Under the pieces are notes generated by a model. That model was not told the origin of the DNA and did no database searches. It saw only the letters and a list, made by a program, of their open reading frames with translations. From a virus (lineage: Duplodnaviria > Heunggongvirae > Uroviricota > Caudoviricetes): a DNA stretch of 9,683 nt. Position 1 is the first letter of the stretch. Every line of letters starts with the position of its first letter. Positions 3,112 through 3,448 of the stretch are shown piece after piece. The translations under genes and the position numbers were made by a program. The stretch covers positions 1-9,683 of the IMG/VR virus record IMGVR_UViG_2531839374_000010; one strand, written 5' to 3'.

Positions 3112-3399
3112 ATGAGCAGAAAAAACCAACGTTACTCTAAAGAGTTCAAAGCCGAAGCTGTCAGAACGGTTCTTGAAAATCAACTTTCGATCAGTGAAGG
3201 CGCTTCCCGATTATCCCTTCCTGAAGGCACTTTAGGACAATGGGTTACCGCCGCCAGAAAAGGGCTCGGTACTCCTGGTTCCCGCACGGTGGCTGAACTG
3301 GAATCTGAAATTCTGCAACTGCGTAAGGCGTTAAATGAAGCTCGCCTTGAGCGAGATATATTAAAAAAGCAACAGCGTATTTTGCACAGGAGTCGCTGA
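3112..3399 (+). CDS. IS600-like transposase OrfA (HTH), with an altered C-terminus in this copy
   Basis: ORF translation MSRKNQRYSKEFKAEAVRTVLENQLSISEG... is the IS3-family OrfA type. The A6G motif lies at 3363-3369. The zero frame ends ...ILKKQQRILHRSR, whereas the -1 frame gives ...KKATAYFAQESLKNTR-stop. Confidence 0.8.
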   Translation: MSRKNQRYSKEFKAEAVRTVLENQLSISEGASRLSLPEGTLGQWVTAARKGLGTPGSRTVAELESEILQLRKALNEARLERDILKKQQRILHRSR

Positions 3400-3448
3400 A
3401 AAATACGCGTTAATCGAACAATGGCGACAACAATTTCCCATTGAAGCG

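Follow-up and report, generated by a model that had tools for sequence, protein, structure and literature searches.

The window analysed here, a stretch of 9,683 nucleotides, carries on its plus strand a structurally complete copy of IS600 in which the run of seven adenines (A7) at the recoding site has contracted to six (A6) through the loss of a single A. We are confident of this explanation, and with it that the copy by itself probably produces little or no transposase. The element is a mutated member of the IS600 family and not a separate family: the element is a known one, and the change at its recoding site is a homopolymer indel of an ordinary kind. No paper describing the A6 allele of IS600 specifically was found; the sequences themselves are public and annotated.

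The boundaries of the element were set by its inverted repeats and by the end of the alignment to copies elsewhere, and place it at positions 3048-4310, a length of 1263 bp. The left terminal inverted repeat (TGAGGTAGCC..., 3048-3074) is 27 nt long and 70% complementary to the right one (...GTACACCTCA, 4284-4310); as is usual for IS600, the repeats are imperfect and the ends read TG...CA. A direct repeat of ATA flanks the element on both sides (3045-3047 and 4311-4313), as expected from the 3-bp target duplication of IS600 and the IS3 family, and the same flanks are found in loci L014, L031, L032, and L033. Many records that bear the label "IS3-like element IS600 family transposase" align with the element over its full length (100% coverage) at 99.4-99.8% identity; the annotated IS600 copies that match at this level run into the hundreds, and the majority of them span 1264 bp. 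The upstream gene, orfA' (3112-3399, plus strand), encodes a 95-aa variant of OrfA with a frameshifted tail, the canonical protein being 100 aa long. In S. boydii Sb227 the exact 95-aa protein goes by the name IS600 ORF1, and a product identical to it has a precomputed match to Pfam HTH_Tnp_1. The orfB frame is open from 3365 to 4267 on the plus strand, is of full length without premature stops, and contains an ATG-initiated reading frame (3449-4267, 272 aa) with an integrase-type DDE domain; precomputed matches of an identical product are to Pfam HTH_21, rve, rve_3, and rve_2. The combination of an HTH-containing OrfA with an rve (DDE) OrfB that marks IS600 and the IS3 family is therefore present. 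The family feature that is missing from the window copy, and that is present in canonical A7 copies, is the location of orfB in the -1 frame. Compared with canonical IS600 (IS3 family, IS3 group; 1264 bp; Shigella/E. coli), the window copy has the same inverted repeats, 3-bp target duplication, and downstream stem-loop, the first 86 residues of OrfA are identical, and OrfB is identical save for one substitution, at window position 3651 (A, versus G in all other copies aligned). The two differ in run length (A7 in the canonical element versus A6), in the orfB frame (-1 versus +1), in OrfA length (100 versus 95 aa), and in total length (1264 versus 1263 bp).

The frames can be read directly from the sequence, and since these readings are deterministic, chance is not at issue. 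The orfA start codon lies at 3112 (position modulo 3 = 1), and the orfB frame, which opens after a TAA at 3362-3364, has modulo 2, so that orfB lies at +1 with respect to orfA. The contracted run occupies 3363-3368 and is followed by G at 3369, so that the orfA codons are TTA (starting at 3361), AAA, and AAG. The heptamer A_AAA_AAG (3363-3369) is thus present in the orfA frame in the X_XXY_YYZ register. In the zero frame, orfA' terminates with ...DILKKQQRILHRSR and a stop codon at 3397-3399. The -1 frame (modulo 0), read from 3369, consists of 14 codons (ATAYFAQESLKNTR) followed by TAA at 3411-3413, and this segment (3369-3413) encodes the C-terminus found in P0001 and P0002, two canonical OrfA proteins of 100 aa. 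In the IS911 copy of the window the arrangement is canonical: A_AAA_AAG at 8766-8772 lies in the register of orfA, and orfB follows at -1. The original prediction had stated the +1 position of orfB, the in-frame heptamer, the short -1 frame resembling a native OrfA C-terminus, and the canonical state of the IS911 copy, and on all four it agrees with these readings.

The same prediction took A_AAA_AAG to be the slip motif of IS600 and proposed that a single G immediately 3' of A6G had been deleted. Alignment to other IS600 copies bore out a one-nucleotide difference at the slippery site, visible in the element length (1263 versus 1264 bp) and in the change of the orfB frame from -1 to +1; the identity of the missing base was not as proposed, since the canonical copies, unlike the window, have A7. 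In the alignment of the window with L001-L005, the sole indel across the whole element lies in the A-run, where column 316 holds a gap in the window and an A in canonical copies: the window and L001, L004, and L005 read TTAAAAAAGCA (A6), and L002 and L003 read TTAAAAAAAGCA (A7). The A7 form TTAAAAAAAGCA is found in the 1264-bp copies of E. coli pCFSAN029787_01 and S. flexneri pWR501, and ten of ten further loci encoding the 100-aa OrfA also have A7. According to Sharma et al. 2014 (PMC4066793), IS600 belongs to cluster A_AAA_AAA_1, with a shift at codon 86, an OrfA of 100 aa, and a fusion of 385 aa; the same work calls -1 frameshifting of IS600 proven and stem-loop-stimulated, on the basis of unpublished data. 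The A_AAA_AAG premise was therefore wrong for IS600, and seems to have been extrapolated from IS911, whose copy in the window reads AAAAAAGGCT. An ancestral A6GG sequence (AAAAAAGGCA) that lost a G would lead to the same OrfA protein (LKKAT) and would mirror the AAAAAAGGCT of IS911 in the same window; loss of G and loss of A predict the same OrfA, so that the sequence of this copy alone could not separate them. The copies did: every 1264-bp IS600 examined has A7 followed by GCA, and none of the IS600 copies read contained AAAAAAGGCA. Together with the published A_AAA_AAA motif, the alignments and the ten-locus survey rule out the deletion of a G, to which we assign virtually no chance. We conclude from these comparisons that the base lost is one A of the A7 run and not the G that follows A6G.

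The window contains a prophage that has integrated at the thrW-type site. The proA gene (1-1254) is followed directly by tRNA-Thr(CGT) (1369-1444) and then by the integrase, and the IS600 insertion lies between tRNA-Thr/proA and the prophage genes. In related E. coli genomes this prophage region is also present but lacks both IS600 and IS911, and it aligns in two pieces at 74% coverage. IS600 interrupts a prophage reading frame of roughly 100 aa, and two minus-strand reading frames, at 2848-3096 (82 aa) and 4264-4419 (51 aa), are hybrids that start or end inside the ends of the element; the 82-aa hybrid was used as a locus-specific probe for the IS600 insertion of the window. The IS911 copy (8443-9683) runs off the end of the window, and similarity to the uninterrupted E. 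coli prophage stops at 8442. The prophage integrase (1459-2621, minus strand) is split into 152-aa and 262-aa reading frames by a T7-to-T6 contraction near 2235; its counterpart in CP026731.1 is an intact 387-aa gene, and the truncated integrase product is common to seven contigs from several assemblies.

The original prediction allowed that the deletion might prove to be a sequencing error. Positions 1-8200 of the window are identical to contig AMGB01000020.1 of GCA_000296305.1 (8200 being the extent of the fetched locus), a draft assembly, in which the interior of a repeat can be a consensus of several copies. A homopolymer error of sequencing or assembly, in a copy that really has A7 and the normal -1 arrangement, would fit with this source and with the presence of a second seven-to-six homopolymer contraction in the window, that in the integrase. 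It would also fit with the appearance of A6 in several recent S. sonnei and S. flexneri plasmid assemblies, when the older pWR501, pCP301, and pSS_046 have only A7, and some of the A6 calls in recent plasmid assemblies could indeed be homopolymer artefacts. Two drafts, L035 and L036, show A7 at the same junction as the window; these calls are not locus-specific, because both contigs end inside the repeat. Against an error, three independent contiguous assemblies (CP026731.1, CP011511.1, and UAUO01000012.1) carry A6 in this insertion, with identical flanks and the ATA duplication, and A6 is present at this insertion in a further draft contig type that represents ca. 15 assemblies. The exact 95-aa OrfA' is encoded on 122 contigs from NCBI, ENA, and Logan sources, and a variant with T at residue 5 on 184. 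The same 95-aa OrfA' is found in at least four other places in the S. boydii Sb227 chromosome (CP000036.1), which was reportedly sequenced by Sanger reads, and the integrase contraction is itself shared by several assemblies. We therefore judge a sequencing error to be very unlikely indeed, and conclude that A6 is a genuine, inherited allele.

The anomaly had been thought specific to the window element, which is not so: the contig counts given above, 122 and 184, and the occurrence of the allele at many loci of S. boydii-type genomes place it among widespread variants. Copies with A6 are found at different sites with their own perfect 3-bp duplications (TTC, CCA, CGC, GAC, TGA, GAG, and TTC), and on at least two SNP backgrounds, with N or T at residue 5 of OrfA, which points to more than one origin or to recombination between copies. 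Among complete E. coli genomes covering the site, A6 was found in 6 of 1333 records and A8 in 3 of 1333; among plasmid records, 28 of 262 had A6. These run-length counts include full-length 100% matches only, because truncated copies, by matching the 81-83-nt queries in part, inflate the identity-band counts. The chromosome of Sb227 has 20 IS600 copies, and its virulence plasmid none (Hawkey et al. 2020). The four places mentioned above and the accession list suggest that ca. six of the 20 have A6, a figure that is an estimate and not a count. A look-up of the 237-aa form of OrfB (the annotation style of Sb227) with the window sequence gave no match. The 272-aa OrfB of the window matched only at L016, another locus of the same assembly; this look-up could not return the record of the window itself, because that record annotates IS600 as a single joined product.

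Since the allele is present at many sites, it has somehow persisted and multiplied. An insertion between yfiO-IS4 and raiA, with identical flanks and a CGC duplication, has A6 in L010 (CP000036.1, Sb227) and A7 in L022 (PTES01000002.1); at least some changes of run length have thus taken place in situ, by slippage or gene conversion. Mobilisation in trans by A7 copies is a possible alternative route of spread, because the ends of the A6 element are intact. The second IS600 copy of the source assembly, L016 (GCA_000296305.1, AMGB01000068.1, 4600-5862), lies at a different locus with a TTC duplication, and is 100% identical to the window copy, including the private A at 3651. The shared substitution hints at gene conversion, and equally at a repeat consensus of the draft assembly; repeats in draft assemblies may carry consensus sequence, and the private SNP was accordingly rejected as proof of gene conversion. 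Two further observations concern the surroundings of such copies. L009 and L013 have the right flank TTCCAGGGCA in common with L016, their left flanks differ from its left flank, and they lack a matching duplication, which suggests rearrangement by recombination between IS600 copies. In L034 (MDJL01000041.1) and 14 similar contigs with the proA-side insertion, the sequence after IS600 position 364 (TGAACCGCCCCGGGTTTCC...) looks like the terminus of a different IS3-family element, which would mean that one IS has inserted into another just 3' of the A-run.

A third run length is represented by the A8 allele (1265 bp), found in L039 (NZ_CP027351.1), NZ_CP058683.1, and NZ_OY754853.1. Here OrfAB is a single uninterrupted reading frame of 385 codons with exactly the canonical fusion sequence, and transposase could potentially be expressed constitutively. 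One may thus ask if the A-run is a reversible mutational switch operated by replication slippage, with A6 off, A7 regulated, and A8 constitutive. All three lengths exist in nature, the A8 form is an open OrfAB gene, the run length of one orthologous insertion differs between strains, and genes avoid A7 tracts partly on account of their high indel rates (Sharma et al. 2014, PMC4066793). We nevertheless strongly doubt such a switch: seven As are short for a contingency tract, A6 and A8 each account for well under 1% of the E. coli records covering the site, and their rarity fits with mutation and drift or purifying selection without any regulatory role.

The preferred explanation remains the loss of one A from A7, the type of indel expected from homopolymer slippage, and what follows from it for expression and transposition we infer from the frames. 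In canonical IS600, a -1 slip occurs on A_AAA_AAA (codons 85-86), aided by a stem-loop 6 nt downstream; ribosomes that shift read ...LKK-SNSVFCTG... into orfB and produce the 385-aa OrfAB, and those that do not shift produce the 100-aa OrfA. In the A6 copy, all sequence 3' of the run is displaced by one base. The zero frame would then give the 95-aa OrfA' with a new nine-residue tail. The contraction at the same time places an A_AAA_AAG heptamer in frame, 5 nt ahead of that stem-loop, and a -1 slip is still to be expected, as A_AAA_AAG ranks with the most efficient motifs for -1 slippage in E. coli (Sharma et al. 2014, PMC4066793); such a slip would only remake the normal 100-aa OrfA. Through ribosomal slippage, the orfB frame should be reachable only by a rare -2 or +1 event, of which the -2 slip would yield the canonical OrfAB sequence, and a messenger lacking one A would likewise join the orfA and orfB frames. 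OrfA-type proteins would still be expressed from an element that is itself probably non-autonomous. The original expectation that the one-nucleotide deletion probably prevents normal OrfAB synthesis stands, and its corollary, a copy probably defective in transposition unless complemented in trans, is a reasonable one. Because both ends are kept, the A6 copy could be a substrate for OrfAB supplied by A7 copies and so be mobilised in trans.

The predicted stem-loop spans 3371-3411 (plus strand), with core arms at 3375-3386 and 3397-3408 (12 nt each, 92% complementary). The spacer between the motif and the stem-loop core is 5 nt in the window and 6 nt in A7 copies. The minimum free energy is -13.1 kcal/mol (z = -1.9), and 11 of 200 shuffled sequences fold as well. 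In position, opening G-C pair, and stability, the predicted hairpin agrees with the criteria that Sharma et al. 2014 (PMC4066793) set out; in IS600 and the IS3 family, a stimulatory RNA structure is expected 4-10 nt 3' of the motif. When the window was scanned against Rfam, the tRNA was the only match, and no frameshift-element family was found. With its in-frame heptamer and a stem-loop at 5 nt, the window copy resembles the signal of the IS911, IS3, and IS150 type (A_AAA_AAG plus a downstream structure). The outcome differs: in IS911, the -1 shift enters orfB and gives transposase, whereas in the window IS600 it would enter only the 14-codon tail and remake OrfA. The IS1447 subgroup of the IS3 family, which uses transcriptional slippage, offers another comparison, since there the transposase frame is likewise reached through an A-run and an indel in the mRNA could join the frames of the window copy too. 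The run of IS1447 is A9, and slippage there requires seven As or more; a run of six gives no product and no detectable transcriptional slippage, and a run of seven does slip. The orfA/orfB junction of the window IS600 has only six As, and slippage of the IS1447 kind would need one A to be lost from the run or two to be gained.

A6 occurs at more loci than one would expect of a dead copy, unless mobilisation in trans, gene conversion, or repeated mutation is common. The allele could then be thought still autonomous, with -2 frameshifting (or P-site slippage from AAG to AAA) providing a low but sufficient amount of OrfAB (...LKKSNSV...) and thereby explaining its multiplication. The private target duplications of A6 copies at many loci are in line with this, as is the fact that a -2 slip on the window sequence gives the exact canonical fusion. 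For -2 frameshifting on a U6A heptamer, the optimal spacer is 1-2 nt shorter than that for -1, and the stem-loop is here 1 nt closer than in the canonical element; by analogy, some residual OrfAB synthesis from the A6 allele may occur. Alternative slippages also take place on the A_AAA_AAG of dnaX. Yet the U6A spacer data were obtained in vitro with a eukaryotic system, and in bacteria -2 and +1 events on dnaX-type A_AAA_AAG sites are minor and arise mostly under tRNA limitation. The insertion shared by L010 (A6) and L022 (A7) indicates that some A6 alleles arose in place and not by transposition of an A6 element, and A6 is rare in E. coli, at the 6 of 1333 records cited. Autonomy of the allele is, in our view, unlikely. 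That A6 is a re-wired copy, in which the signal toggles between the 95-aa and 100-aa isoforms of OrfA and low-level -2 frameshifting still yields authentic OrfAB, we consider quite unlikely. Were it true, A6 would define an IS600 variant that attenuates itself and has come to make up a sizeable part of the IS600 complement of S. boydii-type genomes, and would provide a natural bacterial -2 programmed frameshift in a transposase. An A6 element active through -2 frameshifting would be of greater interest.

The significance of the finding lies chiefly in annotation and book-keeping. Annotation in the NCBI/RefSeq style labels A6 copies (the window copy at 3048-4310, L001, and L004) as "programmed frameshift" transposases, just like A7 copies. 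In the window's own record (L027, 3981-5136), a 385-aa product is derived from 1156 nt, which requires a -2 join and not the canonical -1. The annotation thus overstates the integrity of A6 copies, and counts of "intact" IS600 in Shigella genomes may be inflated. The slippery motif that had been assumed for IS600 is corrected from A6G to A7. IS600 is one of five IS elements that have expanded in all Shigella lineages, and for this reason it matters for models of IS activity which of its copies can supply transposase.
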